64,000 nucleotides of DNA from NCBI GenBank assembly GCA_963827275.1, contig CAWHAA010000005.1, positions 416,001 through 480,000 on the forward strand, written 5' to 3'. The notes beneath the pieces are model-generated. The model made no database searches, was not told the origin of the DNA, and worked only from the letters and a program-made list of their open reading frames with translations. Every line of letters starts with the position of its first letter. Positions within the stretch are counted from its first letter, which is position 1. This DNA is from an uncultured Spirochaetota bacterium (GTDB lineage: Bacteria > Spirochaetota > UBA4802 > UBA5550). Both the position numbers and the translations under genes were made by a program. Below are positions 35,903-52,852 of the stretch, piece by piece.

Positions 35903-35956
35903 GCCGGACCGATCTCCGGCAGGCTGAAAAATAACAGAGCAAAAAACGATTTTTTC

Positions 35957-35985
35957 TTGATAATAGATATAACTTCTGTTATATT
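35957..35985 (+). promoter_or_regulatory. Sigma70-type promoter overlapped by a palindrome
   Basis: TTGATA-N17-TATATT with a TG extension; ATATAAC-TTCT-GTTATAT overlaps the -10. Confidence 0.55.
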
Positions 35986-36121
35986 ATACAGAGGCCCGCT
36001 CCTGCATGCGGTCATCGCATGAAAGAGCGGGCCATTTCGGACAACAGGTCTTCCATCCCGTGTGCGTATGCCGTCCATGAAGCTCTTTGCCGGACGGCAA
36101 AATAAAAATCTGGAGGTTTGT

Positions 36122-36292
36122 ATGCAAACAAACGCGCCGAAATTCGTTACGTGGGTCGTGGGGGTAGTTATCGGTTGTCTGGGCATCCTGGGAACGCTGG
36201 TTGTGATACCCTTCATATCAACGTATCCATTCTGGATCCTGGCAGTCGGGTTCGCGATTCTCGCCCTTGGAAGCGTGATCAAGGGCATGTAA
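36122..36292 (+). CDS. Small two-TM membrane protein (56 aa)
   Basis: GGAGG RBS; MQTNAPKFVTWVVGVVIGCLGILG...; followed by a terminator. Confidence 0.7.
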   Translation: MQTNAPKFVTWVVGVVIGCLGILGTLVVIPFISTYPFWILAVGFAILALGSVIKGM

Positions 36293-36300
36293 GGCCGCAT

Positions 36301-36341
36301 AAAAAAAGCGGTCTGGCCTCTCCGGGCCAGATCGCTTTTTT
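36301..36341. terminator. Bidirectional intrinsic terminator
   Basis: A7-GCGGTCTGGCC...GGCCAGATCGC-T6 between convergent genes. Confidence 0.8.
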
Positions 36342-36370
36342 ATTCTCTGCTATAAAATTTTCCGCCTCTT

Positions 36371-38827
36371 TCAATTGCCCCCGCGCACCGGCCAGACATA
36401 CCGCTCTGAACCTGTTGTGCCGGTTTTTTCCCATGTTCCTGTCTCGGTGCCATACGGGACGTTCATTAAATACGCTCTTGAAGCACTGGTCATGGCAGTG
36501 GTTGATGACCAGTGACACTGTGTCACATAATTTGCAAATCCCGTGCTGAACTGCTGCCCGAATGTCTTTTCGTACTGCTGAAGGCTCGACAATTCAAGGA
36601 TATTGGGCAGACGCCAGTCGTTATATCCCGCATAGTTATCCGTATTGAGCTGGTCAACAAAAGCAAGGGCATTCTCCCAGTATACCCCGCCGTTTCCGGC
36701 CGTTTGATCCGCATCAAAAGTGGGATAACTGGTCAGCATCAGGTTCAGGTCGGTCGTCCACATGAGTCCGGTAAGGTTATCGGTCGTGGTGCCGTCGCCG
36801 TTAATGGTGAACCTCGGGTCAGGTCTGGCGATCCCCGCCTGGTATTCTCCATCCTGTCCCGTACCCGGGCAGGCGACCACGGCGCCGGCGGTATCATAAC
36901 ACGTTGCCTGGCCTGTCTTCGGGAGTATCGTCGTGGTGCCTGCGACTGCCCACACATTGAATATAGTAGACTTGGGCGTAGCGTACTTTTCCCCTGAGGA
37001 AAAATCGACAGGCCATGCCTGTGCATGATTGGAGGCATTATCGTATGCCGTGTATGTGGTGGATGACCAGTAATACGTGCCGACATTGGCGAACCCGTTA
37101 GAGGTGAGCCATGCAGCCGTACTCGTGGCCCCGTAATTCATCAGGCTCTTCAGCTCAATAATGTTCGGGATCCGCCAGTCCGTCTGTCCGGCGTAGGTTT
37201 CAGCCCTGAGCTGGGCCGCAAAATCAAGGGCGGATTGCCAGTCTGTCCGTCCATCAACCGTGCCGTCGGTATCAAGATATGAATAGGTTGGGCTGTTCAT
37301 TAATTTCGCGTCAGTGGTCCAGATGAGGCCGGTAAGGTTGTCCGTGATAGTGCCGTTGAAATTATCGGTGAACCTCATGGTCGGCCATGTGGCTCCGTAC
37401 TGGTATTCGCCGTCCTGGCCGGTGCCCGAGCAGGCAACGGCGGCGCCGGCCGCGTCGTAGCAGTTGGTCTGCCCGGTCCGGGGCACCTGCACCGGATACG
37501 CGGGCAGCTGGTAATTGATTGTCAGGGTCGATGCGGGGCTGACCACGCTTATGTTTCCGGCGGCGTCCTTGAGCCACAGGTAGAGAACATGCGCGCCCGG
37601 GATCGCCTTCAGAAGGCAGGTTGCCGGCGCGGCAGCGAGCCATCCGGGATCCGCCGCGGCAGGCGAAGTCGGCGATTCGGTTATCATGTAGCCGGTGACC
37701 GCCGTGTTGTCCCAGACGGTCATGGTTACCGGGATCTGCTGGCTGGTGGTCGGGTCCACAGAGCTGGTGGAAAACGACACGACCGTCGGCGCCACAGTGT
37801 CGAGGTAAACGACCGAAAAATGCGTGCCGGTGGCCGCCGCGCTCACGTTGCCGGCGGCGTCTTTCACCCAGAGGTACACCTCGTAGGTGCCGCAGCCGCC
37901 CGACAGGCTGTATGCTGTCGGCTCTGAAGCCAGCCATCCCGCGTCTCCCGCTCCGGGCTGCACGCCCGTCTCGTTGATCATCCAGCCCGTGATACCCACA
38001 TCGTCGGACGCGCTGATGCTCACGCTTATGCCGTCCGTACCCGTTGCCGTCGGTCCGGTGAAGGAAGCGACCACCGGCGCCGTCATGTCATTGTACACGA
38101 TCTGGAAATGCGAGGGCGTCATCATAGCGCTCACGTTGCCGGCGGCGTCCATCGCCCAGGCGTAGAGTTCATACGTGCCGTATCCCCCCGTCAGCGTGTA
38201 GGCCGACGGCTGGGCAGTCTGCCACCCGAGGTCGGTCGGCAGGGGGGACGTTGCCGTCTCGGTGATCATCCACCCCGTGACCCCGATATTGTCCGATGTC
38301 GTCATGTCAACCGATATCACCGGATCGACCGTCGGGTTCGTGGTCGGCGACATGTATGAAAAATATGATACCACGGGCGGCTCGCCGTCGCCCGGGCCGG
38401 AGTAATCGACCGTGAAATGCGAATCCGCGCTCAGGGCGCTGACGTTGCCGGCGGCGTCCCTCGCCCAGACATAGAGCTCATGCGTGCCGAATCCGGAAGT
38501 GATGGTATAGGTTGCCGGCTGGGTCGCCAGCCATCCCGAATCGGTAGGCAGCGGCGCCGCGGCGATTTCGTTGATCATCCACCCGGTGATCCCGACATCA
38601 TCGGTTGCCGTCAGGTCTATATTTATTAATGCATCCGTTGTCGGATTAATGGGTGTCGAAAAAAGCGTGATGACCGGCGCCTGGGTATCAGCCGGGGCAG
38701 CCGGACCGCTGTCGATGCCAAAAAATGACATCATGGATTCATTGGAAGAATTATCCTCGAGGTCGTTTCGTTCGCAGGACAGCAGAAAAAATGCTGCAAA
38801 AAAAACCACAAAAAAATATCTCTTCAT
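36371..38827 (-). CDS. Surface lipoprotein with four ~100-aa beta-rich repeats and two DUF1566 (Lcl C-terminal-like) domains
   Basis: Lipobox LLSC; 4x (TG[WY]MI.E...GW...LY.W..DAAGN[VI]S); 2x (P[RK]TGQ..CYD..G...GTGQDGEYQ...TDNLTGL.W...DWR.PNI.EL...WSSTT). Confidence 0.8.
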   Translation of the reverse strand: MKRYFFVVFFAAFFLLSCERNDLEDNSSNESMMSFFGIDSGPAAPADTQAPVITLFSTPINPTTDALINIDLTATDDVGITGWMINEIAAAPLPTDSGWLATQPATYTITSGFGTHELYVWARDAAGNVSALSADSHFTVDYSGPGDGEPPVVSYFSYMSPTTNPTVDPVISVDMTTSDNIGVTGWMITETATSPLPTDLGWQTAQPSAYTLTGGYGTYELYAWAMDAAGNVSAMMTPSHFQIVYNDMTAPVVASFTGPTATGTDGISVSISASDDVGITGWMINETGVQPGAGDAGWLASEPTAYSLSGGCGTYEVYLWVKDAAGNVSAAATGTHFSVVYLDTVAPTVVSFSTSSVDPTTSQQIPVTMTVWDNTAVTGYMITESPTSPAAADPGWLAAAPATCLLKAIPGAHVLYLWLKDAAGNISVVSPASTLTINYQLPAYPVQVPRTGQTNCYDAAGAAVACSGTGQDGEYQYGATWPTMRFTDNFNGTITDNLTGLIWTTDAKLMNSPTYSYLDTDGTVDGRTDWQSALDFAAQLRAETYAGQTDWRIPNIIELKSLMNYGATSTAAWLTSNGFANVGTYYWSSTTYTAYDNASNHAQAWPVDFSSGEKYATPKSTIFNVWAVAGTTTILPKTGQATCYDTAGAVVACPGTGQDGEYQAGIARPDPRFTINGDGTTTDNLTGLMWTTDLNLMLTSYPTFDADQTAGNGGVYWENALAFVDQLNTDNYAGYNDWRLPNILELSSLQQYEKTFGQQFSTGFANYVTQCHWSSTTAMTSASRAYLMNVPYGTETGTWEKTGTTGSERYVWPVRGGN

Positions 38828-39134
38828 TTTTATTACTCCATGCCCATAACTGTATACAATATACGATAGATGAGTCATAACGTCAAATTCAATATAATAA
38901 TTTAATTTAAGATATTAATTAAAATATAAGTTTTATATTTATTTGATTACTTTTTAAATCGAAAACAACGACATATTGTGATTAAAATTTGATCCTTATA
39001 TGAATTAGTCGGAACAACGACCAACCACAATAAGCAAAATGAGAGAATTCACAAAAACAGTTCCAACGGACCATAGTATGCCGTATCCCGTAAATTCCGG
39101 TAAACAAGAATTCCTCATTGACACACGCCGCCAG

Positions 39135-39162
39135 ATTAGTTAATGATCGTTCATTAACTAAT
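39135..39162. promoter_or_regulatory. Perfect palindromic operator-like site just downstream of a TTGACA -35
   Basis: ATTAGTTAATGA-TCGT-TCATTAACTAAT with 12-bp arms; TTGACA at 39118-39123. Confidence 0.6.
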
Positions 39163-39169
39163 ATCATCC

Positions 39170-39436
39170 CGCCCACTGGTGAAGCTTGCCGACTGGTTCT
39201 GTACCGAGATCGGCAACACCTTCATCATCAAAAAATACCAGCTCGATTTTCTTTTAGCGAACTACCGGGACACGACCCCGGTGCTGTTCAACATGTACGA
39301 CGGCCTGCTGTACAAGAACGGCAGGGGCGCTCTGTTCATCTGCAATTACGCCCTCTTCTCCCCTGCCCGTCCCGCCGGTCACATGCCGTCCGCGTTCCGG
39401 ACAAGCTGTATATTGAAGCGTATGATGTCAGCGTAG
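39170..39436 (+). pseudogene. Short coding-like gene fragment
   Basis: Host-like GC3-rich codons (LVKLADWFCTEIGNTFIIKKYQLDF...), no RBS, begins abruptly after the palindrome and runs into the end of the M20 gene. Confidence 0.35.
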
Positions 39437-40847
39437 TTTTCGACCGCGATGCGCTCGTTGGTGCCGTGCACGCGGTCAAGGTCTTCCTGCGCGTAGCGCA
39501 GCGGGCAGAACCTGAATATGCTGTCGCTGATCGGTATGTAGAAGCGCGAATCCGTGGCCGCCACAAACAGGAACGGGCGTGACGATGACGCCGGGGAACA
39601 CCTCCCTGATCGTTTTGCTGCAGCATGCCGTACGCCGGCAGCCCCGTGTCGGTCACCGGGGACGGGTCCCGCCCGTCGGGCAGGGGGGCAATCGTCACCC
39701 GCGCATCATCCACCGTCACCCGCGCCCGGTCTGCCACGCCGCGCATGGTATCGCCCGGAAAGATGCGGAAGTTCACCACCGCGGTCGCCCGCTGCGGGAG
39801 CACGTTGTCCCGCGTGCTCCCCCGGAGCATGGTCGGGGCGATGGTAGTGCGGAGCGCGGCGGACATCGACGGGGACGCGCCCAGCTGCGTGCTGACAACG
39901 GCCCCCAGCAGCCAGAGGTTCGAGAGGGCCAGCCGGTTCCCGAGCCCCATGTGCGGGCCGACCGTCTCGAGCATCTGGCGGGTCACGCCCCGGACCCGCA
40001 GCGGGTACTGGCGATTCTCAAGACGGCTCACCGCGGCGCAGAGTATGCCGACAGCGGTCTCCTCGGGCGGCATGGACGAATGGCCCCCGGCGCCCGCGAC
40101 AGAAAGCTCCAGGGAGAGGTAGCCCTTCTCGGCCGTGCCCACCAGCGCGACCGGCTCCTTCACGCCGGCGACCATGCCGCTGGAGATGAAGCCGCCCTCG
40201 TCCACGACCATCCCGAACCGGACGCCGCGCGATGCGAGCATTGCCGCGATTTTCCCGTTCCCATCGACACCGCGGACCTCCTCCGTGTGCCCCACCGCGA
40301 GGCAGACAGTGCGCCGCGGCCGGAAGCCCCGGGCGAGCAGGTACTCAAACGCCTCGAGCGTGCCCATCAGGCTTGACTTGATGTCCTGCGTGCCCCTGCC
40401 CCAGACATACCCGCCCGCGAGGGCGCCGGAAAAGGGCGGATGCGTCCAGTCCCTGACCGTGCCGGGCTCAACAGGCACCACGTCGCTGTGCGCCATCAAT
40501 AAAACGGGCTTCAACGTCGGGTCGCTCCCCTTCCAGGTGTAGAGGAGGCTGTAGCCGTTAACGGTCTCGCGTTTCAGGCGGGCCCGCACCAGGGGAAAGG
40601 CGCGGTCGAGGTAGGCGTTGAACTCCGCAAACGGCCTCCTGTCGAAGCGCCCCGGGTCCATGCTCGATACTGTCTGATAGCGGACCGCTTCCGCCAGCCG
40701 CTCCAGCGCCCCGCGCATGTTGATGTCCGCTTTCGCAGCGGGAGTTACCGCAAGCTGTTTCGAGGTGAAACGCGCCGTTCGGACGAGCACGATCCCCGCG
40801 AGCAAAATAACGATGGCGGCAATACCGATACTGATTTTTTTCATCAT
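39379..40847 (-). CDS. M20 family peptidase / N-acyl amino acid hydrolase (PM20D1-like), with two indels near 39618 and 39575
   Basis: LMAHSDVVP, WGRGTQDIK, TEEVRG, VDEGG and GGHSSMPP motifs; the true C-terminus ATDSRFY...VHGTNERI lies in ORF 39379-39564. Confidence 0.88.
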
Positions 40848-41097
40848 GGCTCCCCCCTGTCAATGAAGGCTACGTGTGGCATCTGCCATGAATGTATACA
40901 GGGTCCCGGGGCATGTCAATTGTATTAATTCCATGCTCCACACGCATGACCATCACGCCTGCTGCGATCGACCGTTGCTTGTTTTCCTGTCTGGAAACCA
41001 TCAGGAAGGGGGCTTTCCCGGCAAAAAGAGTTTTTATATGCTGAAATAAAAATACTTGACGAATATCCCGCATGCATCTTTCATACAAATACCTTAT

Positions 41098-41170
41098 AGG
41101 TGACTAGCTCAATTGGTAGAGCAGCGGTCTCCAAAACCGCAGGTTGGGGGTTCGATTCCCTCGTCACCTG
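41098..41170 (+). tRNA. tRNA-Trp(CCA)
   Basis: Acceptor AGGTGAC/GTCACCT, anticodon arm GCGGT-CTCCAAA-ACCGC, T-loop TTCGATT; CCA not encoded. Confidence 0.95.
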
Positions 41171-41183
41171 CATGCTAGTACGC

Positions 41184-41216
41184 AAAAAGGCGGGGTTGAA
41201 CGACCCCGCCTTTTTT
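41184..41216. terminator. Bidirectional terminator after tRNA-Trp
   Basis: AAAAAGGCGGGGT-TGAACG-ACCCCGCCTTTTTT. Confidence 0.85.
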
Positions 41217-41249
41217 ATTTGTATACTGAAGCATTAAAATATGGCATAT

Positions 41250-41666
41250 TTATTTTTTCTTGAATGGATTAACAACTCTCAGTTTCTTGTCAATAACCTG
41301 TCCGTCACTCATATCCTCTGAATAGAGAAGTGTGCATTTGTTTTCCAATGCACTGCTGATAATCATGCTGTCATAATATGAAAATCCATATTGATCGACG
41401 ATATTCAATGCTGATTGTATTGTCTTAGGAGTAATATTCTTTACAACGCAAATCCTGGAAAGGAATTCTACGGCAATCTTTATATCACTGACCTTAAGAT
41501 TCAGTTTTCTATATAAGACATTCGATATCTCATTGAGGACCTGAGTGGAAATAACGGGATTCTTCTTCAGCAATTCATTTGCGATTACTTTCTTATAATC
41601 CTCAGCACCAAAGGAATAAATAATCACATTGGAATCGAGAAATATCTTATCTCTGGTTGGCTTCAT
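41250..41666 (-). CDS. PIN domain (VapC-like) toxin
   Basis: IFLDSNVIIY, ISTQVLNE, SYYDSMII and LYSEDM acidic motifs. Confidence 0.9.
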   Translation of the reverse strand: MKPTRDKIFLDSNVIIYSFGAEDYKKVIANELLKKNPVISTQVLNEISNVLYRKLNLKVSDIKIAVEFLSRICVVKNITPKTIQSALNIVDQYGFSYYDSMIISSALENKCTLLYSEDMSDGQVIDKKLRVVNPFKKK

Positions 41667-41880
41667 CTCTGTTGAATGTGAATCCGCTTAAATCAAACCG
41701 AAAATTATTGAAAAAGGCGTCGATTTCATTTTCTCTAATATTCTTCCTTGCTTTGGCTTTTGCCGCTATTTCTTTATAATGCAAGGTTACTTCAACAGGA
41801 TTGGTTATCTTCTGCTGATATTTCTTAGGAATGACTATAATGCCATTCCTTGTTTTTGTTGAAAATTTTATTGATTTCAT
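41647..41880 (-). CDS. Putative antitoxin of the PIN toxin
   Basis: 77 aa, overlaps the toxin start; NGIIVIP N-terminus and FTFNRDEANQR C-terminus. Confidence 0.7.
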   Translation of the reverse strand: MKSIKFSTKTRNGIIVIPKKYQQKITNPVEVTLHYKEIAAKAKARKNIRENEIDAFFNNFRFDLSGFTFNRDEANQR

Positions 41881-42008
41881 ATTCCCGAATAATTCAAAGT
41901 TCAATTCAATTTATATGTCTATATTTACATTTTTATTGAAAATTGTACAACAAATTTTTCCAATATATTGATATATTATTATGATTTTATCAGCCTTATG
42001 ATTGGTTT

Positions 42009-42266
42009 ATGAATGAAAAATCAATTATTCCTGCCCTTTTCCACCTCCCAGATCATGAAATCGAGTATAATCTCATCAATAACCGGGTTCGAAAATCGTC
42101 CCTGATTGCCTGCAGAACGGGACTTACACTTTTCAGGCAGATGGTTGACCTGGGCCATGACTTTTGGATCGAGCAGGAAGGAAAAGGGCTTGATCCAGTC
42201 GATTCTTACACCGAATATACCATCACAATAAATATCCGAAGTTATTATTTTAAGCCTTACAATTAG
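42009..42266 (+). CDS. Hypothetical protein or gene remnant
   Basis: 85-aa ORF filling the gap between convergent units; no motif and no clear RBS. Confidence 0.25.
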   Translation: MNEKSIIPALFHLPDHEIEYNLINNRVRKSSLIACRTGLTLFRQMVDLGHDFWIEQEGKGLDPVDSYTEYTITINIRSYYFKPYN

Positions 42267-42271
42267 GGAAA

Positions 42272-43171
42272 TCAAGAAAGCATTGCGCCGATATTGGAAA
42301 TCCTGAACCCGGAATTTACCTTTCCCCTCGGTATCATGTATCTATAATGATATTTTGGATAACCCACCATGATTCCACCGTAAACGCGCCTGGTTTTATC
42401 GATGCCCAATAAAGTGTTGATAGTTTTCGGTTTCTTTAAAGCCGCCGTAATCATATAGCCTGTCCAACAAGTGCCAAGACCCATTGCGGGCGCTAATAAT
42501 TCCATCCCACGTAAAGCAACTGCGCAGTTGATAGCGCCCAAAGGATTGTGCGCCAGATCATGCGCCAGAATCACAGACGGAGCATTCCGAAAGACCGCGC
42601 CTGGTATTTCATTATTTTCACGCCGATGCCGGAAGATATCATGGTAAGACGTGAGCCAGGAAGTAATTTCCGGACCGAATTTCCCAGCAAGGAGGTCGAA
42701 GATAAGGCCTTTTCCCGTGAAAAATTTCAAACCGGCATTCCAGCATATTTCATAAACTGTTTTTTCAATACTTCTGAGTTGTTCAATATCAGTGATGAGC
42801 ATAAATCGGACAGACTGAGTATTGGCCCCTGTTCCTCCGTAAGCGCCGACTTCAATCAGGTTATTCAAAGATTGTTCATCAACGGCCTTATCCTTGTATG
42901 ACCGAATCGACCGCCGCTGAACAATGTATTCCTTGAGTTTATCAGGCGGGATCTCGATCTTGTTTGATTCAATAAAATCCTTACGCGGCAGTTCCCTATG
43001 ATCAATTGCCGCTGCCGGACAAACAGCAACACAATGCCCACAGGACCTGCATTGATCCGGGTAGCGGACAAAGACCCTGGCACTCATTTTCTCCTTCCCA
43101 ATAACGTAATAGGGGCATACATCATAGCAGGCCAGGCAGTTGGTGCATAGATTTTCATTAATCGTTAACAT
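42272..43171 (-). CDS. Nitroreductase family protein with an N-terminal 4Fe-4S dicluster
   Basis: CTNCLACYDVCP, CRSCGHCVAVCP, QRRSIRSY, GLGTCWTG and VGYP motifs; GGAGG RBS. Confidence 0.9.
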   Translation of the reverse strand: MLTINENLCTNCLACYDVCPYYVIGKEKMSARVFVRYPDQCRSCGHCVAVCPAAAIDHRELPRKDFIESNKIEIPPDKLKEYIVQRRSIRSYKDKAVDEQSLNNLIEVGAYGGTGANTQSVRFMLITDIEQLRSIEKTVYEICWNAGLKFFTGKGLIFDLLAGKFGPEITSWLTSYHDIFRHRRENNEIPGAVFRNAPSVILAHDLAHNPLGAINCAVALRGMELLAPAMGLGTCWTGYMITAALKKPKTINTLLGIDKTRRVYGGIMVGYPKYHYRYMIPRGKVNSGFRISNIGAMLS

Positions 43172-43230
43172 GGTTTTTCCTCCTGCGATCGAATTACGTT
43201 CCCAATGGAGCATGCGTCCCTATTCTGACC

Positions 43231-43620
43231 TCAACTTTTCTTTCTGCCCGGCGAGGCCTTGACGATATCAGGTCGTGAGGCTTCGCCAACATTCATGCGT
43301 CCGGCCCATCGCTCGGCCCAGGCGTTGAGCATCAGAATGATTTTACCCAGTGCGATTCCTTCCTCCGTGATGACGTACCCTTCCTTATCACGCTGAGCAA
43401 TGATCCCGGTCTCGCGTAATTCCGACAAACGCGTATTGAGAACCGTAGGGGAGATGTCCCCACAAAGCTTTTGCAGATCCCGGAAGCTGCTGGCTCCGTT
43501 TTGATTGAGTTCCCAGAGGATCCTCAGCGCCCATCGTCTTCCCAGAAGATCGAGCGCCGCCATGATCGGGCGTCCGGTGTTTGAGCTTCCGAGCTTTGCT
43601 CCCGGTTTTGGCGCAGCCAT
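43231..43620 (-). CDS. HxlR-family winged-helix transcriptional regulator
   Basis: PIMAALDLLGRRWALRILWEL...ISPTVLNTRLSEL; GGAGG RBS before MAAPK. Confidence 0.9.
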   Translation of the reverse strand: MAAPKPGAKLGSSNTGRPIMAALDLLGRRWALRILWELNQNGASSFRDLQKLCGDISPTVLNTRLSELRETGIIAQRDKEGYVITEEGIALGKIILMLNAWAERWAGRMNVGEASRPDIVKASPGRKKS

Positions 43621-43653
43621 AGCACCTCCATGAATTGATACTATTTGTGTAGC

Positions 43654-43691
43654 GCTACTATAATAGTAGCATACTGTCATCAATAAGTCAA
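43654..43691 (-). promoter_or_regulatory. Sigma70 promoter of the hxlR-nitroreductase unit with an overlapping palindromic operator
   Basis: Minus strand TTGACT-N17-TACTAT; palindrome GCTACTAT-A-ATAGTAGC (43654-43670) covers the -10. Confidence 0.7.
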
Positions 43692-43809
43692 GCGCGGGAT
43701 ACTATTTTTTAAAATTTCATGCAGGTGCAGAGCAAAAGGTGTGATTGCGGGACAACTGCCGGTGTGGTGTAAATGTTAAAAGCTCTCTGTCCAGTACTCT
43801 TTGTTATGT

Positions 43810-43914
43810 CGCTTTTCTGTACCAAATCATTACATTAAGCAGACAAGTGTCCAATAGTTTAAGTCCCATCTCACCTGCATGCACAGAAAAGGCGGGGTTG
43901 CACGACCCCCGCCT
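43810..43914 (+). repeat. att-like junction 1: 70-nt conserved end including the tRNA-3' core, then a copy of the post-tRNA hairpin
   Basis: 43810-43879 matches 49164-49233 at 60/70 without gaps (last 29 nt identical). 43887-43914 AAAAGGCGGGGTTGCACGACCCCCGCCT matches 41185-41211. Confidence 0.9.
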
Positions 43915-43991
43915 GTATATTTGACCTTACCAACATGTATTCGCACAACTTATTGAACCTTCGCATATCCTGCATTTAGAAAAAATGAAAT

Positions 43992-44009
43992 TTTTAACAA
44001 AATTTTAAC
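43992..44009 (+). promoter_or_regulatory. Putative KdpE/OmpR-family binding site
   Basis: Direct repeat TTTTAAC-AAAA-TTTTAAC with an 11-bp period, upstream of the K+ operon. Confidence 0.45.
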
Positions 44010-44069
44010 GCATAACCGACCCATTCTTACATCACCAAAATAGTCAAATGCTGAAAATAATATTAGTAT

Positions 44070-44441
44070 TTGCATATGGCTATTAGTGAGCACTACTCTG
44101 ATAATAAATTTAGACTATCACATTTTGTGATAACAATTACCATAAGCGGGATAACCGCCAGCGAATATATCTATTATGAAAAAGAAAACATTATACGAGA
44201 GACCACACATCCGACAACAATTGATAAAAATGAGCGATCACTAATAATACAAATGAATTATATGCAAGGTAAAAACATTAGTCTTACATTGGATGATTTT
44301 ATAAACTTTTTCGAAAACCTGCCGGAATGGATCATGACCAGATATTATCAATTATATGATCACCACGATAATAGTAAATATATCAGTAAAATCAATTTAT
44401 TGAGTAAATATTCAACAATGAACATAGAGATGCGTAAATAA
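44070..44441 (+). CDS. Hypothetical protein; 5' end uncertain (possible indels, alternative ATG at 44048)
   Basis: 123-aa ORF in AT-rich DNA ending 1 nt before the ktrB start. Confidence 0.4.
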   Translation: MHMAISEHYSDNKFRLSHFVITITISGITASEYIYYEKENIIRETTHPTTIDKNERSLIIQMNYMQGKNISLTLDDFINFFENLPEWIMTRYYQLYDHHDNSKYISKINLLSKYSTMNIEMRK

Positions 44442-44442
44442 C

Positions 44443-45789
44443 ATGAAGAAAAAGCATGTTACCCATAAAACATCTCCAATAACACTACTATCATCAGGAT
44501 ATGCAATTCTCATAGTGATAAGCGCCGGCATTCTCTCACTACCGTTTTCTTCGACAAAATCTGTTTTTACACCCTATCTTGATTCACTTTTTACCGCGAC
44601 ATCGGCGATTACAACAACCGGATTGATAGTATTTGATACGGGAACATATTATAATATGTTCGGGCAGATTATTATTCTATTATTATTTCAGATTGGTGGT
44701 CTGGGATATATGCTCTTTGTAATTCTGATATTTATTGTCTTTCAACAAAGAATATCCATACAAAGCAATCTCATGCTTCAGGAATCGATTAAAAAACCCC
44801 TCAAGGTAGATATTCTATACTTTTTAAAAATGATTATCCTGTTTACGATATTTATTGAAATTATTGGGGCAATAATTTTATCGCTTCTATTGTATCAATA
44901 TTTTCCCTTAAGCCATTCAATATATTCAGGAATATTTCATTCCATATCCGCTTTTAATACCGCTGGTTTTTCGATTTATCAGGATAGTTTCTGCAAATTC
45001 AGCGATAATATTTCCCTGAATATAGCCATAATTTGCATCAGCACTCTCGGCTCTCTTGGATTTTTTGTACTCTTTGATATTTATAAATATTACATGGAAA
45101 GATCAAAAGGAATAAAGAATATAAAATTATCAGTCCATTCACGGATAATACTTATTTGTACTATAACAATCCTGATAGCGGGGTCATTTCTTGTATTCAT
45201 TATTGAATATTACAGCAACAGTGCTCCGCTCAAATTCAAACTGTTATCCTCATTATTCCAGGTTTCCTCCGCGTCAACAACAACGGGTTTCAATTCAATT
45301 GATATAGGAAAGATGAATGAAAGCACACTGTTTTTAATTGTAATAATGATGTTCATCGGTGCCGGTTCAGGAGGAACAGGCGGAGGAATAAAAATGACCA
45401 CCCTGGTTGTCACGCTATTATCGGTTTATGCCATAATACGGAATAAGAATACCGTGAATATTTTTAAAAGAAGGTTGCCTTTTGAAATCATCAGAAACTC
45501 ATTCGCCATTTTCATATTATCAATATCATGGGTAACACTCATAACATATATTCTATCAATTACGGAAAACAAGGGATTTGTCAGTTTATTATTCGAGACA
45601 GGATCTGCGTTGGGGACTGTAGGATTATCTACCGGTATAACAGCCGATTTAAGCAGCATTGGTAAAGTATTGATTACTCTATCCATGTTTATCGGACGTA
45701 TAGGTCCCCTGGGTATTGGAATATCATTGCTTACAAGCGCCGAAGAACCCGGTTACAAATATTCCACTACTGACGTCTTTATTGGGTGA
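44443..45789 (+). CDS. ktrB: TrkH/KtrB-type K+ transporter membrane subunit
   Basis: Four pore motifs (TSAITTTGL, SAFNTAGFS, STTTGFNSI, SALGTVGLSTG); GGTGGGIK; MFIGRIGP. Confidence 0.9.
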   Translation: MKKKHVTHKTSPITLLSSGYAILIVISAGILSLPFSSTKSVFTPYLDSLFTATSAITTTGLIVFDTGTYYNMFGQIIILLLFQIGGLGYMLFVILIFIVFQQRISIQSNLMLQESIKKPLKVDILYFLKMIILFTIFIEIIGAIILSLLLYQYFPLSHSIYSGIFHSISAFNTAGFSIYQDSFCKFSDNISLNIAIICISTLGSLGFFVLFDIYKYYMERSKGIKNIKLSVHSRIILICTITILIAGSFLVFIIEYYSNSAPLKFKLLSSLFQVSSASTTTGFNSIDIGKMNESTLFLIVIMMFIGAGSGGTGGGIKMTTLVVTLLSVYAIIRNKNTVNIFKRRLPFEIIRNSFAIFILSISWVTLITYILSITENKGFVSLLFETGSALGTVGLSTGITADLSSIGKVLITLSMFIGRIGPLGIGISLLTSAEEPGYKYSTTDVFIG

Positions 45790-45798
45790 GGATTATTC

Positions 45799-46452
45799 AT
45801 GAAACAGTTTTTAATTATTGGACTCGGGAATTTTGGGTATAATCTTGCCTGTGAACTATTTAAAATAGGCAATGAAGTAATCGTCGTTGACAGCAATGAA
45901 ACGCTGATCAATAAGATAAAGGAAAATGTTTCACACGCGATAATCGCAGACGCAAAGCAGGTTGATAATATCAAGGATTTCATCGGCAAAAAAACCGATG
46001 CCGTTATTTTAAACCTGGGCGAATCACTCGAAGAGACCGTTTTGGTAACACTTGCGGTGAAAAACCTTGGGGCAAAAAACATAATCGTGAAAGTGACAAA
46101 CGAGGAACACGGTATGATCGCAAAGAAACTCGGCGCAACGGAAATAATTATCCCGGAAAGGGATTATGCCAAACAAATGTCAAAAAAATTGACAAGCGAG
46201 AATTTACTTGATTATCTTCCTCTGTCGCCTGAATATGGGATCTATGAGATAGCCGTGCCGGATCATTTTACCGGTAAAAGGTTAAATGAATTGAATATTC
46301 GGAAAAAATATAATGTAAATGTAGTCGCGATAAAGGACATATTAAAAGACATTACTATTATCAATCCGGAACCTGATTTTAAATTTATACCGGATATGGT
46401 ACTATATTTATTAGGTAAAAGTGATGATATCATCAATTTGAAAAAAATGTAG
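45799..46452 (+). CDS. ktrA: TrkA/KtrA-type RCK regulatory subunit
   Basis: IIGLGNFG, IIPERD and the RCK_C segment LNELNIRKKYNVNVVAIK. Confidence 0.9.
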   Translation: MKQFLIIGLGNFGYNLACELFKIGNEVIVVDSNETLINKIKENVSHAIIADAKQVDNIKDFIGKKTDAVILNLGESLEETVLVTLAVKNLGAKNIIVKVTNEEHGMIAKKLGATEIIIPERDYAKQMSKKLTSENLLDYLPLSPEYGIYEIAVPDHFTGKRLNELNIRKKYNVNVVAIKDILKDITIINPEPDFKFIPDMVLYLLGKSDDIINLKKM

Positions 46453-46492
46453 CTCCATAGAAAAAAATAATAACATTAAATGGAGTAAATCA

Positions 46493-48436
46493 TTGAAGGC
46501 TTCACCAGGTTTTATAGTTGCCATAAGCCCAAGCCCCTATTCCCAGCATCTGATCAAATGGACGCAGAAAACCGCCGTTGAGCAAAATCTCCCCTGGGTG
46601 GCGGTATATATTCAAACCAGCAAAGAACTTACGAATGAAGAGAATACCCTGCTTAAAAAAAACATACAGCTGGTCAAAGACCTTGGAGGGGAATTATTAT
46701 CGTCAATGGATGACAATGTCCCGCTGGCAATCATGCGCATAGCAAGGCAGCGTACTATTTCACACATAGTAGTAGGTAAACCGCTTGGTTATAAATCTTC
46801 TGGAATAATGAACAAAACGAATATTATTGACACACTAATAAGTATTAGCGGCGAAATTGATATATTTGTCATTTCCGAACAGAGTGTCAGACCGGAAAAG
46901 AGAAAAAGTGTATCTGTTTTTATTCGTAATTTATTATCAGGAAACAAGATTGAATATTTCCATGTTATTTTATGGCTGCTCATCATCATTATAATCAATC
47001 TGTATTTAATCAGATATATAAGCTATCTGTCGGTTGGTTTTATCTTTCTGGCCGCCGTTGCCGTTGTCTCCTCATATTACAAAAAAGGCCCTGTATTATT
47101 ATTCGCCAGTATCAGTGCAGTATTATGGAATTTTTTATTTATCAAACCACGATTTACCATTTATATAGACCATCTCGAAGATCTCTTTATGTTTCTTATG
47201 TATTTTATTACAGCATTTATTATTGGCAATCTTACAACAAAGCTACGCCTCAAAGAAATATTCCTGAGAAAGAGGGAAAAGAATCTTGAAGAACTGTACA
47301 TGATGGGTAAAATTCTCAATGAGTCCAACAATCTGGATGAGATTTTAGATAAATCAACAGCTTTGCTCAGAAATATTTTTAATGCTAAAATTTCGGTATT
47401 TCTAATACCTGATAACGATACTCTTTCATTACTGCCGCGCAGGGGAAACGACTTTACCTTTCCGGAGAATGAACGAGAAGCAATTCTCTATTGTTTTGAA
47501 AACAAAAAACCTTCAGGTAAAAACACCAGTATCATGAGTGGATCGAAATACCATTATATCCCCCTGCACAATCACAGCATTCAGGCGGGCGTTTTGGCCA
47601 TTGATTATAATGACAAAAGCGGATTATCAATTGAACAGGAAAACCTGTTGTTTGCCCTTGTGTCTCAAATAACATCTGCCCTGGAGAGAGACGAGTTTAT
47701 TAAAACACAGCAAAAAATAAAATTAGCGGAAGAATCAGAACGATTATACCAGATATTGCTCAATTCAGTATCGCATGAACTTCGGACGCCCATCACAACA
47801 ATATCAACATCGGCCAATGGCCTGGTAGATGAAAAACTTGCTCAAAATGAGGAGGTACGAAAAATTTTCGCGACCGATATTATTGAATCATCGGACCGTT
47901 TAAATCGAATAGTCGACAATCTTCTTGGTTCATTGCGGATTAAAAGTGAAAAGATTATACTCAATCTTGAATGGTATGATATATCCGAACTGGCGAGTCA
48001 TGTTCAGGGGAAACTTCACAATCTACTTAAGAATCATAATTTTATCGTAAAAATAGACAATTCAATACCCACGTTAAAATTTGATTTCACGCTTATGGAG
48101 CAACTATTGACAAACCTGATTTACAATGCCATACTATATACGCCGCAGGGCAGCGAGATACAATTGAATATTGAGGCGGATCAAAATATGATATACATAT
48201 CAGTTATTGATAATGGACCTGGAATACCCGACGATGAAAAAGATAAAGTATTTCAGAAGTTCTATCGGGTAAAATCAATTAAAAAAGGCGGCCTTGGGCT
48301 TGGACTATCTATTTGCAAAGAAATCGCCGAAATCCACAAGGGCTCAATTAACGTTACGACAGGTTCAGCCGGAGGAGCGCATTTTACTGTCACATTGCCC
48401 CTGCAACAAAGCACTGTACATGGTGAATTACAATGA
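46493..48436 (+). CDS. kdpD: KdpD-like sensor kinase (Usp, 4 TM, GAF, HisKA, HATPase) lacking the N-terminal KdpD domain
   Basis: Begins at the Usp-like IVAISPSPYS; WNFLFIKPRFT, SVSHELRTPIT, DNGPGIP and GLGLGLSIC; TTG start after GGAG. Confidence 0.85.
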   Translation: MKASPGFIVAISPSPYSQHLIKWTQKTAVEQNLPWVAVYIQTSKELTNEENTLLKKNIQLVKDLGGELLSSMDDNVPLAIMRIARQRTISHIVVGKPLGYKSSGIMNKTNIIDTLISISGEIDIFVISEQSVRPEKRKSVSVFIRNLLSGNKIEYFHVILWLLIIIIINLYLIRYISYLSVGFIFLAAVAVVSSYYKKGPVLLFASISAVLWNFLFIKPRFTIYIDHLEDLFMFLMYFITAFIIGNLTTKLRLKEIFLRKREKNLEELYMMGKILNESNNLDEILDKSTALLRNIFNAKISVFLIPDNDTLSLLPRRGNDFTFPENEREAILYCFENKKPSGKNTSIMSGSKYHYIPLHNHSIQAGVLAIDYNDKSGLSIEQENLLFALVSQITSALERDEFIKTQQKIKLAEESERLYQILLNSVSHELRTPITTISTSANGLVDEKLAQNEEVRKIFATDIIESSDRLNRIVDNLLGSLRIKSEKIILNLEWYDISELASHVQGKLHNLLKNHNFIVKIDNSIPTLKFDFTLMEQLLTNLIYNAILYTPQGSEIQLNIEADQNMIYISVIDNGPGIPDDEKDKVFQKFYRVKSIKKGGLGLGLSICKEIAEIHKGSINVTTGSAGGAHFTVTLPLQQSTVHGELQ

Positions 48437-49125
48437 AAGAAGGCGGTCTCATTCTTGTTGTTGACGACGAAACTCAAATCCGGAGATTTTTAAAAATCAG
48501 CCTGGAATCAAATGGTTATAAAGTTATTGAAGCTGACACCGGTGAAGAAGGAATAACCCAAACCGCCACAATTACTCCTGATATAATAATACTCGATCTC
48601 GGCCTGCCTGACATGGATGGACTTGATTTTGTAAAAAGAGTCCGGGAGTGGAGCACCATTCCAATTATAATATTAACGGTGAAGGATTCAGAAAAAGACA
48701 AAGTGATTCTTCTTGATAACGGCGCTGACGATTATCTGACCAAACCATTCAGCCTGAATGAACTTATGGCAAGAATACGGGTCGCATTCAGGCACAAACA
48801 CTCTGACAAGGGCACTCAGGTTTTCAAATCGGGAAAAATATCTATCGATTTTGATAAACGCATCGTAAAGGTAAATGATGAAAAGATAAAACTTACCCCG
48901 AAGGAATATGCTGTTTTAACCCTGCTTGCGAGAAACGCCGGTAAAGTTCTGACCCAGAATTATATACTTAAAGAATTATGGGGACCGTATTATCAAGAAG
49001 AATCACAATATTTAAGAATCTATATAATGCAAATCAGAAAGAAAATTGAAGATAATCCAAGTAATCCGACAATTATCATAACTGAACCGGGGATTGGTTA
49101 TAGATTTGTTGCTGACTATGATTGA
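48433..49125 (+). CDS. kdpE: KdpE-like OmpR-family response regulator
   Basis: VVDDETQIRRFL, LDLGLPDMDG, GADDYLTKPF, YLRIYIMQIRKKIE and TEPGIGYRF motifs. Confidence 0.9.
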   Translation: MKEGGLILVVDDETQIRRFLKISLESNGYKVIEADTGEEGITQTATITPDIIILDLGLPDMDGLDFVKRVREWSTIPIIILTVKDSEKDKVILLDNGADDYLTKPFSLNELMARIRVAFRHKHSDKGTQVFKSGKISIDFDKRIVKVNDEKIKLTPKEYAVLTLLARNAGKVLTQNYILKELWGPYYQEESQYLRIYIMQIRKKIEDNPSNPTIIITEPGIGYRFVADYD

Positions 49126-49163
49126 TTTCATCATTTGGATAATCAGCAAACTCAATATCAAGC

Positions 49164-49233
49164 CGCTTTCCTGTACCAGATAATGACATTCAGCAACGAA
49201 ATGCCCAATAGTTTAAGTCCCATCTCACCTGCA
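49164..49233 (+). repeat. att-like junction 2
   Basis: Second copy of the 70-nt end, finishing with CCAATAGTTTAAGTCCCATCTCACCTGCA. Confidence 0.9.
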
Positions 49234-49241
49234 GACGAAAC

Positions 49242-49267
49242 CAGGAGGCGGGAGTTCCCGCCTCCTG
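49242..49267. terminator. Hairpin after junction 2, also downstream of katG
   Basis: CAGGAGGCGGGA-GT-TCCCGCCTCCTG. Confidence 0.7.
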
Positions 49268-49299
49268 TCATTTTCAGAAAGATTGTCGACCCGCGCATG

Positions 49300-51489
<2,190 letters not shown>

Positions 51490-51960
51490 TTATTCCTTTA
51501 CCTGCGTTGTCAAAAAAACCTGGATCGACATCTGTTCTATCTGGCTCTGCAGCTCCTCGATGCCGTCCATGTGCGCGTCTTCGTCATTCAGTATCTGCTG
51601 GAGAAAATCGCGGGTCGCGAAATCCTTTACCTCGCCGGCAAGAATGATGGCCTCATTATATGCTTTTATGGCCCCCTCCTCAGCGGCGTGGTCGTTGGCC
51701 AGCTGCTTGTCCACCTTGTCCCCGATCATGATCTTGTTCAGCAGGCTGACCGTCGGCGTGCCTTCAAGGAACAGGATGCGGCCGATGAGCTTCTCCGCGT
51801 GCTTCATCTCGTCGATGGCGCGCTTCTCGAAATGCTTGTGGAGCTTTTCGTACCCCCAGTCGTCGCACATCTCCGAATGGACCATGTACTGGTTGATCGC
51901 CGTCAGCTCGTCAGCCAGCAGCGTATTGAGAGTAGTTAATAATTTTTCGTTGCCTTTCAT
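51490..51960 (-). CDS. bfr: Bacterioferritin
   Basis: MKG...ELTAINQY, IDEMKHA, RILFLEG and DEDAHMD; GGGAGGGAG RBS. Confidence 0.92.
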   Translation of the reverse strand: MKGNEKLLTTLNTLLADELTAINQYMVHSEMCDDWGYEKLHKHFEKRAIDEMKHAEKLIGRILFLEGTPTVSLLNKIMIGDKVDKQLANDHAAEEGAIKAYNEAIILAGEVKDFATRDFLQQILNDEDAHMDGIEELQSQIEQMSIQVFLTTQVKE

Positions 51961-52019
51961 CACTCCCTCCCATTGATTGGTTTTAATTATAATAAGTCCG
52001 GATGGCCGTCGCCGAATGG

Positions 52020-52418
52020 TCAGCCTTTTTTTCTCTTCATGCATTTATCGCACGTGCCGTGAAATTGGATCGTATGGCCCGAAATGCTGTGCCGCGACAT
52101 TCCACGGGCCTTTTTCATTATGATATCCAGGGGCTGCATGGGAAAATCGGTCACGGTTTTACAGGTGTCACATATAAAGTGATAATGCAATCCCGGGATG
52201 GCATCGTAATGCTCAATACCGTCGTTGAACTCCCTGCGGGTTACGCGCCCCTCCTCAACCAGAATGTTGATATTGCGATACACGTTGCCGAGGCTGATGG
52301 ACGGCATCTCCTTTTTCAGGGCCTCGTATACGCTGCGCGCGGTCGGATGGTCCATCCGGGACCGTATGAACTCATAGATCCTTTCGCGCTGTATGCTTTT
52401 GCGACGGACGGATTTCAT
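52020..52418 (-). CDS. Fur/PerR-family transcriptional repressor
   Basis: DHPTA, SISLGNVYRN, HYHFICDTC and FHGTCDKC motifs. Confidence 0.9.
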   Translation of the reverse strand: MKSVRRKSIQRERIYEFIRSRMDHPTARSVYEALKKEMPSISLGNVYRNINILVEEGRVTRREFNDGIEHYDAIPGLHYHFICDTCKTVTDFPMQPLDIIMKKARGMSRHSISGHTIQFHGTCDKCMKRKKG

Positions 52419-52420
52419 AT

Positions 52421-52464
52421 TAATAATGATTCTTAATATTAAGAAATTTAATATTAAATGTCAA
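52421..52464 (-). promoter_or_regulatory. Sigma70 promoter with a Per/Fur-box-like site
   Basis: Minus strand TTGACA-N17-TAATAT; 7-1-7 repeat TAAGAAT-C-ATTATTA (52421-52435); palindrome TTCTTAATATTAAGAA (52430-52445). Confidence 0.7.
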
Positions 52465-52852
52465 TTGAATCAGGAAAAAAAATACCCGGCGTCTGTTTTT
52501 TTATTTGAAATTATGACCTGCATTAAAATCTTATCAATTGATATTGTGGTGCCTATAAAAATAGATATTATTTAATCATGTAACAATTGTTTTTGATTTT
52601 TCAGCTGTTAATCTTTGATTATAGTAGCACCTGATAAATGCGCAGTTTTCAATATTGGCCAATGAAATTTAAGGCCTCCGCCCGGTGCCGGCAAAGATGC
52701 GGTATTTTCCTCAAATTCTTCATCAAACGTGTCCCGAGATAATGAAATCACACATTGCCATTTCCCAGATATAAAAAATAATCAGATGAACAACTATGAT
52801 CTTCGGGTGCATTTACAAATTTATCAGAGTCTATTTTAATTCTTATTTCATA

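Follow-up and report, generated by a model that had tools for sequence, protein, structure and literature searches.

In Dehalococcoides, genomic islands lie in tandem behind an RNA gene, ssrA, and are associated with a serine recombinase, DsiB (McMurdie et al. 2011, PMC3146451). The enzyme is a large serine recombinase (LSR) of about 540 amino acids, encoded on the reverse strand at the left edge of the island by a gene that overlaps attL in every case and lacks a stop codon within the element, and 15 of the 31 ssrA islands are without an integration module; the authors suggest that a complete enzyme may exist only in the circular form, or where a neighbour placed ahead of the island contributes the 3' fragment. 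In mycobacteriophages with integration-dependent immunity, attP is located within a gene, which loses a C-terminal degradation tag upon integration (PMC3694055), and in the tycheposon preprint (bioRxiv 10.1101/2020.12.28.424599) 910 of 937 elements are tyrosine-recombinase based. The locus considered here lies behind tRNA-Trp in an uncultured Spirochaetota bacterium, within a stretch of 64,000 nucleotides (assembly GCA_963827275.1, contig CAWHAA010000005.1, positions 416,001 to 480,000) that is called the window below and whose positions are used throughout. With a probability of roughly 0.65, this region is a row of tandem units joined at copies of the 3' core of tRNA-Trp, every unit terminating in a cut-off LSR coding tail, and was built by such a recombinase, which passing autonomous elements would have supplied. 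Given that each packet ends in the LSR's cut-off last codons, that enzyme likely builds the stack.

Three copies of the core TCACCTGCA, at 41164, 43871 and 49225, stand 2707 and 5354 bp apart, and the blocks that end in the second and third copies are alike: 43810-43879 and 49164-49233 agree at 60 of 70 positions, the final 29 being identical, against 37-42/70 for the best ungapped 70-mer match in each of ten shufflings of the modules. An earlier note on this DNA, written from its letters alone, had described these cores, spacings and ends, the hairpins at both left ends and the tRNA-Trp identity, all of which are borne out (for the tRNA, by ARAGORN and Rfam). What it took for the first of two modules proves to be two units, 1a (942 bp) and 1b (1765 bp), divided by a third junction that it had missed; this ends at 42114, has the core TTGCCTGCA and carries an arm of a second family (77.8 bits, with a model that included this arm) that also occurs in the genomes G001, G004, G006, G008, G010, G011, G016 and G023. 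The AT-richness claimed for the modules holds for unit 1a and unit 2 (GC content 0.33 and 0.36, against 0.59 in the flanks), whereas unit 1b, at 0.47, is only moderately AT-rich. The features that form the junctions are as follows.

41098..41170, plus strand: tRNA-Trp(cca), by ARAGORN and Rfam RF00005; the left half of the target site is formed by the tRNA 3' end
41164..41172, plus strand: core TCACCTGCA of junction 0, with CT at 41168-41169 as the probable crossover dinucleotide, placed by symmetry at the centre of the free site's inverted arms
41173..41215, plus strand: type-A left end of unit 1a, a short half-site with a terminator-like hairpin
42021..42114, minus strand: family-2 right arm, the coding tail of the second LSR family, with its stop at 42021-42023 and core end at 42114
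42115..42254, minus strand: family-1 LSR gene stub (about 46 C-terminal codons) with its left-end half-site, head of unit 1b
43804..43879, minus strand: family-1 right arm, the LSR's last 24 codons and stop (43804-43806)
43880..43914, plus strand: type-A left end and hairpin of unit 2
49158..49233, minus strand: family-1 right arm, an LSR tail ending ...WYRKAA, with its stop at 49158-49160
49234..49293, plus strand: decayed LSR-type left end with a hairpin (49242-49267), head of the next unit

Outward from the tRNA, the window holds a type-A toxin unit, a family-2 arm with an LSR stub and a nitroreductase unit, a family-1 arm with a type-A potassium unit, and a family-1 arm with a decayed LSR-type end and a katG unit. 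The earlier statement that no recombinase is encoded here is right for intact genes, but unit 1b opens with the remnant of one: its head (42099-42254) shares 60% of 63 aligned residues with the LSR C-terminus (tblastn E 5e-15). An empty site joining 41172 to 49234 had been proposed, but the flank that begins at 49234 is an LSR-type left end heading the katG unit, with a weak LSR trace (tblastn E 0.33); a near-identical left end with a clearer LSR stub precedes katG in G015 and G016. No right end of the katG unit was found in the window with the arm searches, and in G011 katG and perR are flanked by two sites.

The recombinase itself is found in relatives. The element that directly follows the tRNA in G007 and G012 encodes, on the minus strand, an LSR of 547/548 amino acids, with PF00239 and PF07508 above cut-off, PF13408 just under it, and the A118 integrase as the best match among solved structures; beside tRNA-Trp there is a broken copy in G011 and a stub in G006. 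The gene sits at the left end of its element, faces the tRNA and has no stop codon within the element. Beside the tRNA it terminates in tRNA antisense (...GDRCSA). In the stretches L098, L093 and L077 the LSR gene, intact or cut by the contig, lies behind the right arm of another unit and reads into that arm (...WYRKAA), and the L098 element matches the tRNA-proximal element of G007 at 94.5% identity across 5.3 kb. On the minus strand, the 70-mer of the window is the LSR's last 24 codons and stop. It had been described as a mimic of the tRNA T-arm, and the arms do mimic the T-arm, but they are not that alone, since most of the block is recombinase coding tail. By the earlier note's own account, intact homologues with an internal integrase would make these units ordinary decayed islands, and this applies in part: homologous elements with an internal recombinase stand at this site, intact in two genomes and broken in a third, and some units are their decayed remains.

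The left end of the element is an inverted repeat of a GTTTAAGTCCC segment, with 11-nt arms 16 nt apart and centred on CT, and the free site, a right arm joined to an LSR-type left end, is present in L098, L093 and L077; the attP first proposed, a right arm joined to a type-A left end, is attR-like instead. In family-2 arms the TCGAAC motif is shifted by +5 and +4 bp relative to the tRNA half-site, with no shift visible in family-1 arms. An LSR model has attP half-sites shifted by about 5 bp relative to attB half-sites (PMC3783163); the family-2 arms resemble that arrangement, the family-1 arms do not. A tyrosine recombinase encoded elsewhere in the genome, capturing cassettes through the T-arm mimic as the earlier note had it, is very unlikely: the genome does hold four PF00589 matches, and the mimicry is real, yet none of the four loci is at the array, the element ends carry an LSR gene, and the inversion of the arms about a 2-bp centre is what serine-recombinase sites show.

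Of the 122 genomes of the class, 23 have related LSRs, and 25 of the 27 loci adjoin tRNA-Trp, -Asn, -His or -Arg. The tRNA-Trp site is used by at least two LSR families, which are 36% identical and can take each other's tails: among database proteins, P0001 ends in a family-1 tail, P0018 is a family-2 LSR that ends in tRNA-Trp antisense, and P0017 has the body of family 2 with the tail of family 1. The families that use the site may number more than two: a third LSR, P0031, reads into a family-1 arm in a different frame, and left ends of class D with CCCCAAC (G008 C7, L056, L075) make up an additional left-end type. Behind tRNA-Trp at L134 (G044) there is an autonomous element with a 57%-identical LSR, genes like those of cyclic-oligonucleotide-based antiphage signalling systems (CBASS; SAVED-HNH, DncV-like) and Prim-Pol. 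The array of the window is an orphan: no intact LSR was found in its genome, where PF07508 and PF00239 have no match and tblastn with six LSRs recovered the stub at 42115-42254 and tRNA overlaps only, this genome being 92% complete, so that absence is not proven. Viral contigs gave no exact match to either arm.

That the right arm has been conserved as a coding tail is supported by 30 distinct ungapped arms, drawn from 36 distinct sites. The stop stands at codon 25 in 24 of the 30 (TAA in 13, TGA in 11), and conservation falls directly after it. In family-1 arms the ratio of nonsynonymous to synonymous variation is 0.37 against 0.85 in column shuffles (1/2000 equally low); by distinct codons it is weaker, at 0.56, where four other frames give 0.88-1.13 and the mirror frame gives 0.66. 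Likewise, family-2 arms give 0.52 against 0.92 (P 0.018) and tRNA-Asn arms 0.53 (P about 0.02), from 17 and 22 arms of which some are damaged; because of the kinship of the arms and the counting of variants sequence by sequence, the figures for all of these arms, family 1 included, overstate the case. A peptide pattern resembling D..LL..MIW is common to family-1, family-2 and tRNA-Asn arms despite their different DNA.

A sigma-70-like match with an extended -10 lies inside the family-1 arm (43853-43826, minus strand), pointing into the unit, and this motif may add to the conservation of the arm. It is improbable, however, that the arm is kept mainly as a DNA signal, whether inward promoter or extended binding site, with a codon pattern merely inherited from parent elements. 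The sigma-70-like pair (TGGACA, 16 nt, TG and a CATAAT-like element) recurs, with TG in 29 and TGGACA in 23 of the 30 arms, and some synonymous positions barely vary; yet promoter-like matches are no commoner in the region than in its shuffles (38 vs 30 +/- 6), the block ends at the stop codon, the shared peptide pattern is carried by different DNA, and cargo lies beside the arm on either strand.

The way the tail ends may have consequences of its own. AA forms the C-terminus of 10 of 29 non-tRNA tails and of 0 of 16 tRNA tails (Fisher P 0.008), in a count of 45 of 61 homologues that is weakened by the 16 dropped by a length and motif filter; among 1378 long open reading frames of this genome, eight end in AA, and the tag of its transfer-messenger RNA (tmRNA) ends in LAA. 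By analogy with the mycobacteriophage case (PMC3694055), the tail of the free-form LSR is predicted to be a protease degradation tag.

Across the class, the family-1 right arm is found in 11 of 122 genomes, namely this one, nine of the 16 others in the genus and one in another genus; the second arm family matches 16 of 122, a count that includes related tRNA-Asn arms. The exact arm pattern occurs in 27 metagenome stretches, several of them overlapping or duplicated, and a reversed-pattern control has no match in 64 genomes. Within the 4.13-Mb genome the 70-nt block has no further strong match. Chance repetition or misassembly is extremely unlikely: small indel errors are apparent near the array, but the arms recur in ten other genomes of the 122 and in the metagenome stretches, and public contigs span the 42114 junction.

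Forty complete units were delimited with both arm models in 12 array stretches of 10 genomes, L092 being counted together with G010, which it overlaps. They measure 777 to 15,182 bp (median 2.2 kb), 15 being shorter than 1.3 kb, and the longest probably hide undetected junctions. One unit contains a long LSR frame; the other 39 are without the enzyme. Six left ends are family-1 LSR-type, three are family-2, 27 are type-A (two apparent stubs among these being artefacts of tRNA overlap) and four are of other kinds, and the type-A end may be either the native tRNA terminator or a shrunken LSR-type end. Recurring units differ in rank and in neighbours between genomes. The toxin pair of the window is the first unit here and in G008 and the fourth in G011, where the cargo of unit 1a forms a stand-alone 862-bp cassette, and an AraC gene is in the first unit of G015 and the second of G010. 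A strict alternation of LSR-headed and type-A units was considered and rejected; it fits the window and fails in G011, G010 and G016. In G011, GC content increases away from the tRNA (rho 0.71, P 0.047, for eight units as defined before the second arm family was known), which suggests insertion mainly beside the tRNA.

Among the 74 cargo proteins scanned are those of toxin-antitoxin pairs, of peroxide and redox metabolism, of transport and of regulation. The genes that adjoin the LSR in G011, G007 and G044 belong to AEP-TOTE helicase, AAA, HTH, CBASS-like and Prim-Pol families. G013 is a candidate for the empty ancestral site, but its left 134 bp differ from those of G002. In G037, of another family, the VapBC-like unit known from the arrays of the genus lies directly behind tRNA-Trp (L057:2571-3235, 85% identity) with a type-A left end and no recognisable right arm, which suggests transfer across families. 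A 1.7-kb array piece with one junction (L140, on G008 C4) is duplicated on another contig at 98% identity, its ends not being at sites.

A second array stands behind tRNA-Asn in the same genome, with related arms (G000 C6:307876-312243 and C10:848-2590; L163, L164). On C6 a 366-bp unit that ends in a partial tRNA copy is followed by three sites bounding units of 863, 1021 and 835 bp, and on C10 three further sites delimit two more, of 843 and 899 bp. Nearly all of the array consists of toxin-antitoxin units measuring 0.8-1.0 kb: it encodes MqsRA, PemK/MazF (twice), HigB, HepT with a nucleotidyltransferase, and GIY-YIG, four of 13 proteins being without a Pfam match. Unit ends are about 95% identical, the two MazF units are 91% identical, and no LSR was found in this array. 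Relatives hold the units in other combinations, such as G015 without MqsRA (by N-terminal sequence matching). A variant of the tRNA-Asn site, at L163:8140 and in G007, G009, G011 and G015, has the same arms and 16-nt spacing with CA for GA at its centre, often about 105 bp past the normal site; it could be a separate recombination channel.

It is rather unlikely, if worth weighing, that an LSR built the stack and that the recombinase-less units are passive, cis-mobilisable remains, which can move only when an autonomous element beside them does so, or disappear through homologous recombination between arms, and which form no independent cassette pool. LSR stubs do head several units, including 1b, the rise of GC with distance from the tRNA in G011 would suit such a history, and accretion in three steps is described in PMC5704250 and proposed for 15 of the 31 ssrA islands in PMC3146451; the ends of shared units also vary between genomes, and remodelling by deletion keeps this explanation alive. 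Passive decay sits poorly, however, with 27 of 40 units that have a type-A left end and no LSR stub, with 15 of 40 under 1.3 kb, with the tRNA-Asn toxin-antitoxin units of ~0.8-1.2 kb, near-identical ends and varied order, and with tails that are mostly in frame in LSR-free units.

Near-identical strains differ by whole units. In the public contigs of X2 and X3, runs of one study, unit 1b is joined directly to the 49234 flank and module 2 is absent; the join falls within the block of 29 nt, and the contig shows 14 differences over 1.8 kb. In both runs a family-2 left end comes directly after the tRNA core, and unit 1a, which has 0 differences in 903 bp, is preceded by a near-identical family-2 arm, the two meeting at a 6-bp core; X7, from another study, has the same joint more weakly (short side 22 nt, depth 2.3). 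On the simplest reading there would be one extra family-2 unit between the tRNA and unit 1a, whichever the direction of the change and whichever enzyme acted; attB and attP would stand against attL and attR, the right half of attB being provided by the type-A end. Public contigs also cross the 42114 junction, with precise 942-bp joints there, and X1 holds pieces of module 2, one of 396 bp without differences. As the earlier note had predicted, cassettes bounded by sites vary in number and order among relatives and are gained or lost precisely between near-identical strains, and variation on that scale indicates a working route of gene turnover. A joint from 42108 back to 41167, over 942 bp, was dropped as a free circle; its depth of 32.6 matches the 34-36 of X3, where the tRNA is followed by another unit, so that it is better read as a chromosomal neighbour. 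Two joints in X5 (41166 to 42109, short side 29 nt; 43909 to 41227) may belong to other strains and are not used as support, and a 22.8-kb contig of G016, considered as an excised circle, is a 95%-identical linear copy whose end is not at a site.

If an LSR did build the stack from autonomous elements, a new element would recombine at the CT core beside the tRNA and displace older units outward. The recombinase body would later be lost by deletion, leaving either an LSR stub or a minimal left end of half-site and terminator, with the right arm kept. An LSR, working in trans or encoded by the element next door, might then cut recombinase-free units out and insert them again at the core. Relaxed pairing of sites, as for Ccr enzymes, is probable and would be needed because type-A units often adjoin each other. 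A swap of tails would likely alter the stability of the LSR, because the free-form tail ends like a protease tag. A bolder version, offered tentatively as a possibility, is that of a serine-recombinase counterpart of the integron, in which mobile LSRs of several families shuffle recombinase-free cassettes at one tRNA site; type-A cassettes, with a site resembling attR, would on insertion leave an open attB behind the tRNA once more and supply the adjoining LSR gene with an AA-tag tail, resetting both the target site and the half-life of the enzyme.

Several observations weigh against this reading in whole or in part. Family-1 arms lack the 5-bp shift. The arm of the toxin unit is family-1 in G011, family-2 here and missing at that place in G008, and the left ends of the katG unit differ between genomes; shared units with differing ends point to remodelling by deletion rather than to transfer of fixed units. 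The rows of successive type-A units conflict with strict attP x attB and attL x attR rules, and the type-A1 class was itself defined through a motif that afterwards looks conserved. Module 2 could have been lost by RecA or slippage between the 70-nt repeats, and no free circle of a recombinase-less unit was found in the public-contig joints examined. As to the degradation tag, one tail subtype ends in KYT and not in AA, family-2 and tRNA-Asn tails are without a fixed stop, and AlphaFold, for the 552-aa form, gives residues 512-552 a predicted local distance difference test score below 50, with no confident tail.

The genes carried between the junctions of the window are these.

41250..41666, minus strand: PIN-domain (VapC-like) toxin gene, unit 1a (PF01850, E 3e-12)
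41647..41904, minus strand: small gene upstream of the PIN toxin, unit 1a (open reading frame without a Pfam match)
42272..43213, minus strand: 4Fe-4S / nitroreductase gene, unit 1b (PF00881, PF00037)
43231..43683, minus strand: HxlR-family regulator, unit 1b (PF01638)
44443-45789, plus strand: KtrB/TrkH-type K+ transporter, unit 2 (PF02386)
45799-46452, plus strand: TrkA-type subunit, unit 2 (PF02254)
46493-48436, plus strand: KdpD-like kinase without the N-terminal part, unit 2 (best NCBIfam match, below cut-off)
48433-49125, plus strand: KdpE-like regulator, unit 2 (best NCBIfam match, below cut-off)
49300..52418, minus strand: katG, bacterioferritin and PerR/Fur-like genes, a probable older unit whose right end is no longer recognisable

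The small gene at 41647..41904 is likely the antitoxin, by its position and its co-occurrence with the toxin in G011 and G008. The KdpD-like kinase covers only positions 255-885 of a 895-position model, and its neighbours are Ktr genes, not kdpFABC; a 123-aa reading frame at 44070-44441 has no Pfam match. The two left-end hairpins resemble a genome-wide family of 26 GGCGGG..CCCGCC hairpins, the form with a TTG loop being restricted to these two places, and the extra C of the second, which is absent from one public contig (43906), may be an assembly error. Single-base indels separate the window from public contigs of at least two runs at 39578, 39620, 51741, 52937 and 53307-53311, and the apparent frameshifts in an M20 peptidase and in a long gene at 52917-57842 may likewise be assembly errors; the latter gene we take to resemble a glucan phosphorylase/NdvB-type protein. 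In most relatives purF is upstream of the tRNA, with other genes between the two in relatives; here a Lcl-domain surface protein and the M20 peptidase intervene (34578-41097).

More broadly, these arrays carry toxin-antitoxin, oxidative-stress, potassium and redox genes in spirochaetes of anaerobic digesters and sediments, and LSRs with defined sites at four kinds of tRNA are candidate tools for genome integration. In open-licence literature, as represented by titles and the beginnings of abstracts (supplements not included), nothing was found on such spirochaete arrays or on a degron-swapping serine recombinase. The general layout is already known from Dehalococcoides ssrA islands, the staphylococcal cassette chromosome (SCC), cis-mobilisable elements (CIME) and tycheposons. 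Composite SCC islands and ccr-less elements (PMC13739063) are alike in being tandem LSR-built cassettes at the end of one gene, in having sites with a central dinucleotide and degenerate inverted half-sites, in including att-bounded units free of recombinase, and in admitting several recombinase types per locus. SCC integrates at rlmH, whereas the target here is a tRNA gene, and the LSR scores 53-77 bits against the CcrA/B/C models, whose cut-offs are 700-900 (77 vs 900 for CcrB). To our knowledge, ccr genes do not span the SCC site.

CIME accretion (PMC5704250) and Prochlorococcus tycheposons (bioRxiv 10.1101/2020.12.28.424599) are alike in successive insertion at a tRNA end with older, decaying elements displaced outward, in adaptive cargo, and in some elements with primase or helicase genes (here AEP-TOTE and Prim-Pol). 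Those elements depend for the most part on tyrosine recombinases and are bounded by partial tRNA copies, whereas here no more than 6-9 bp of the tRNA are repeated and a recombinase tail marks the boundary. A tyrosine recombinase at the element end together with a long partial-tRNA repeat was not encountered at the tRNA-Trp array. Integrons and clusters of attC sites lacking integron integrases (CALIN) are arrays of one- or two-gene units, with toxin-antitoxin cargo, apparent insertion beside one fixed site and enzyme-less arrays, and in these features the present arrays are alike. They differ in that the four PF00589 matches all lie away from the array (the models used did not include an integron-specific one), in that no attC fold-back site was recognised (Rfam at gathering level matched the tRNA alone in 41000-53000; no attC model was run), in a chemistry that would be double-stranded and of the serine type, in cargo on either strand with its own upstream region, and in a recombinase that is mobile and not a fixed platform gene. 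Presence or absence of single units is precise between near-identical strains and among tRNA-Asn relatives, and no circle was found.

The likeness to the ssrA islands lies in an LSR gene that overlaps attL without an internal stop, as is found here. Those islands target ssrA with a 20-bp direct repeat, whereas the target here is tRNA-Trp (tRNA-Asn, -His and -Arg for sister enzymes) with a core of 6-9 bp, and no repeat of the tmRNA end occurs within 40 kb of it. Of their six-gene module (DsiB, DsiA, RecF-like, ParB, Mom and a polymerase-domain protein), none of the six is among the genes scanned beside the LSR in G011, G007 and G044, elements that were not all scanned to the far end; a second, small serine recombinase, ParB or Mom is likewise not among the genes scanned there. 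The units here are smaller, 39 of 40 are without the enzyme, and two LSR families share one site; the tail, moreover, is under coding constraint and often ends in AA. In mycobacteriophages the split gene is the repressor (PMC3694055), whereas here it would be the recombinase itself and the tag is predicted. The system consequently belongs to none of ssrA islands, SCC or integrons by their defining features, but it works like the first two. With a tail that is constrained as coding sequence, that natural enzymes of different families exchange and that often has a protease-tag-like end, it makes testable what the 2011 paper (PMC3146451) had guessed: that an LSR spanning its own site is completed by a tail from the circle or from a neighbouring island.

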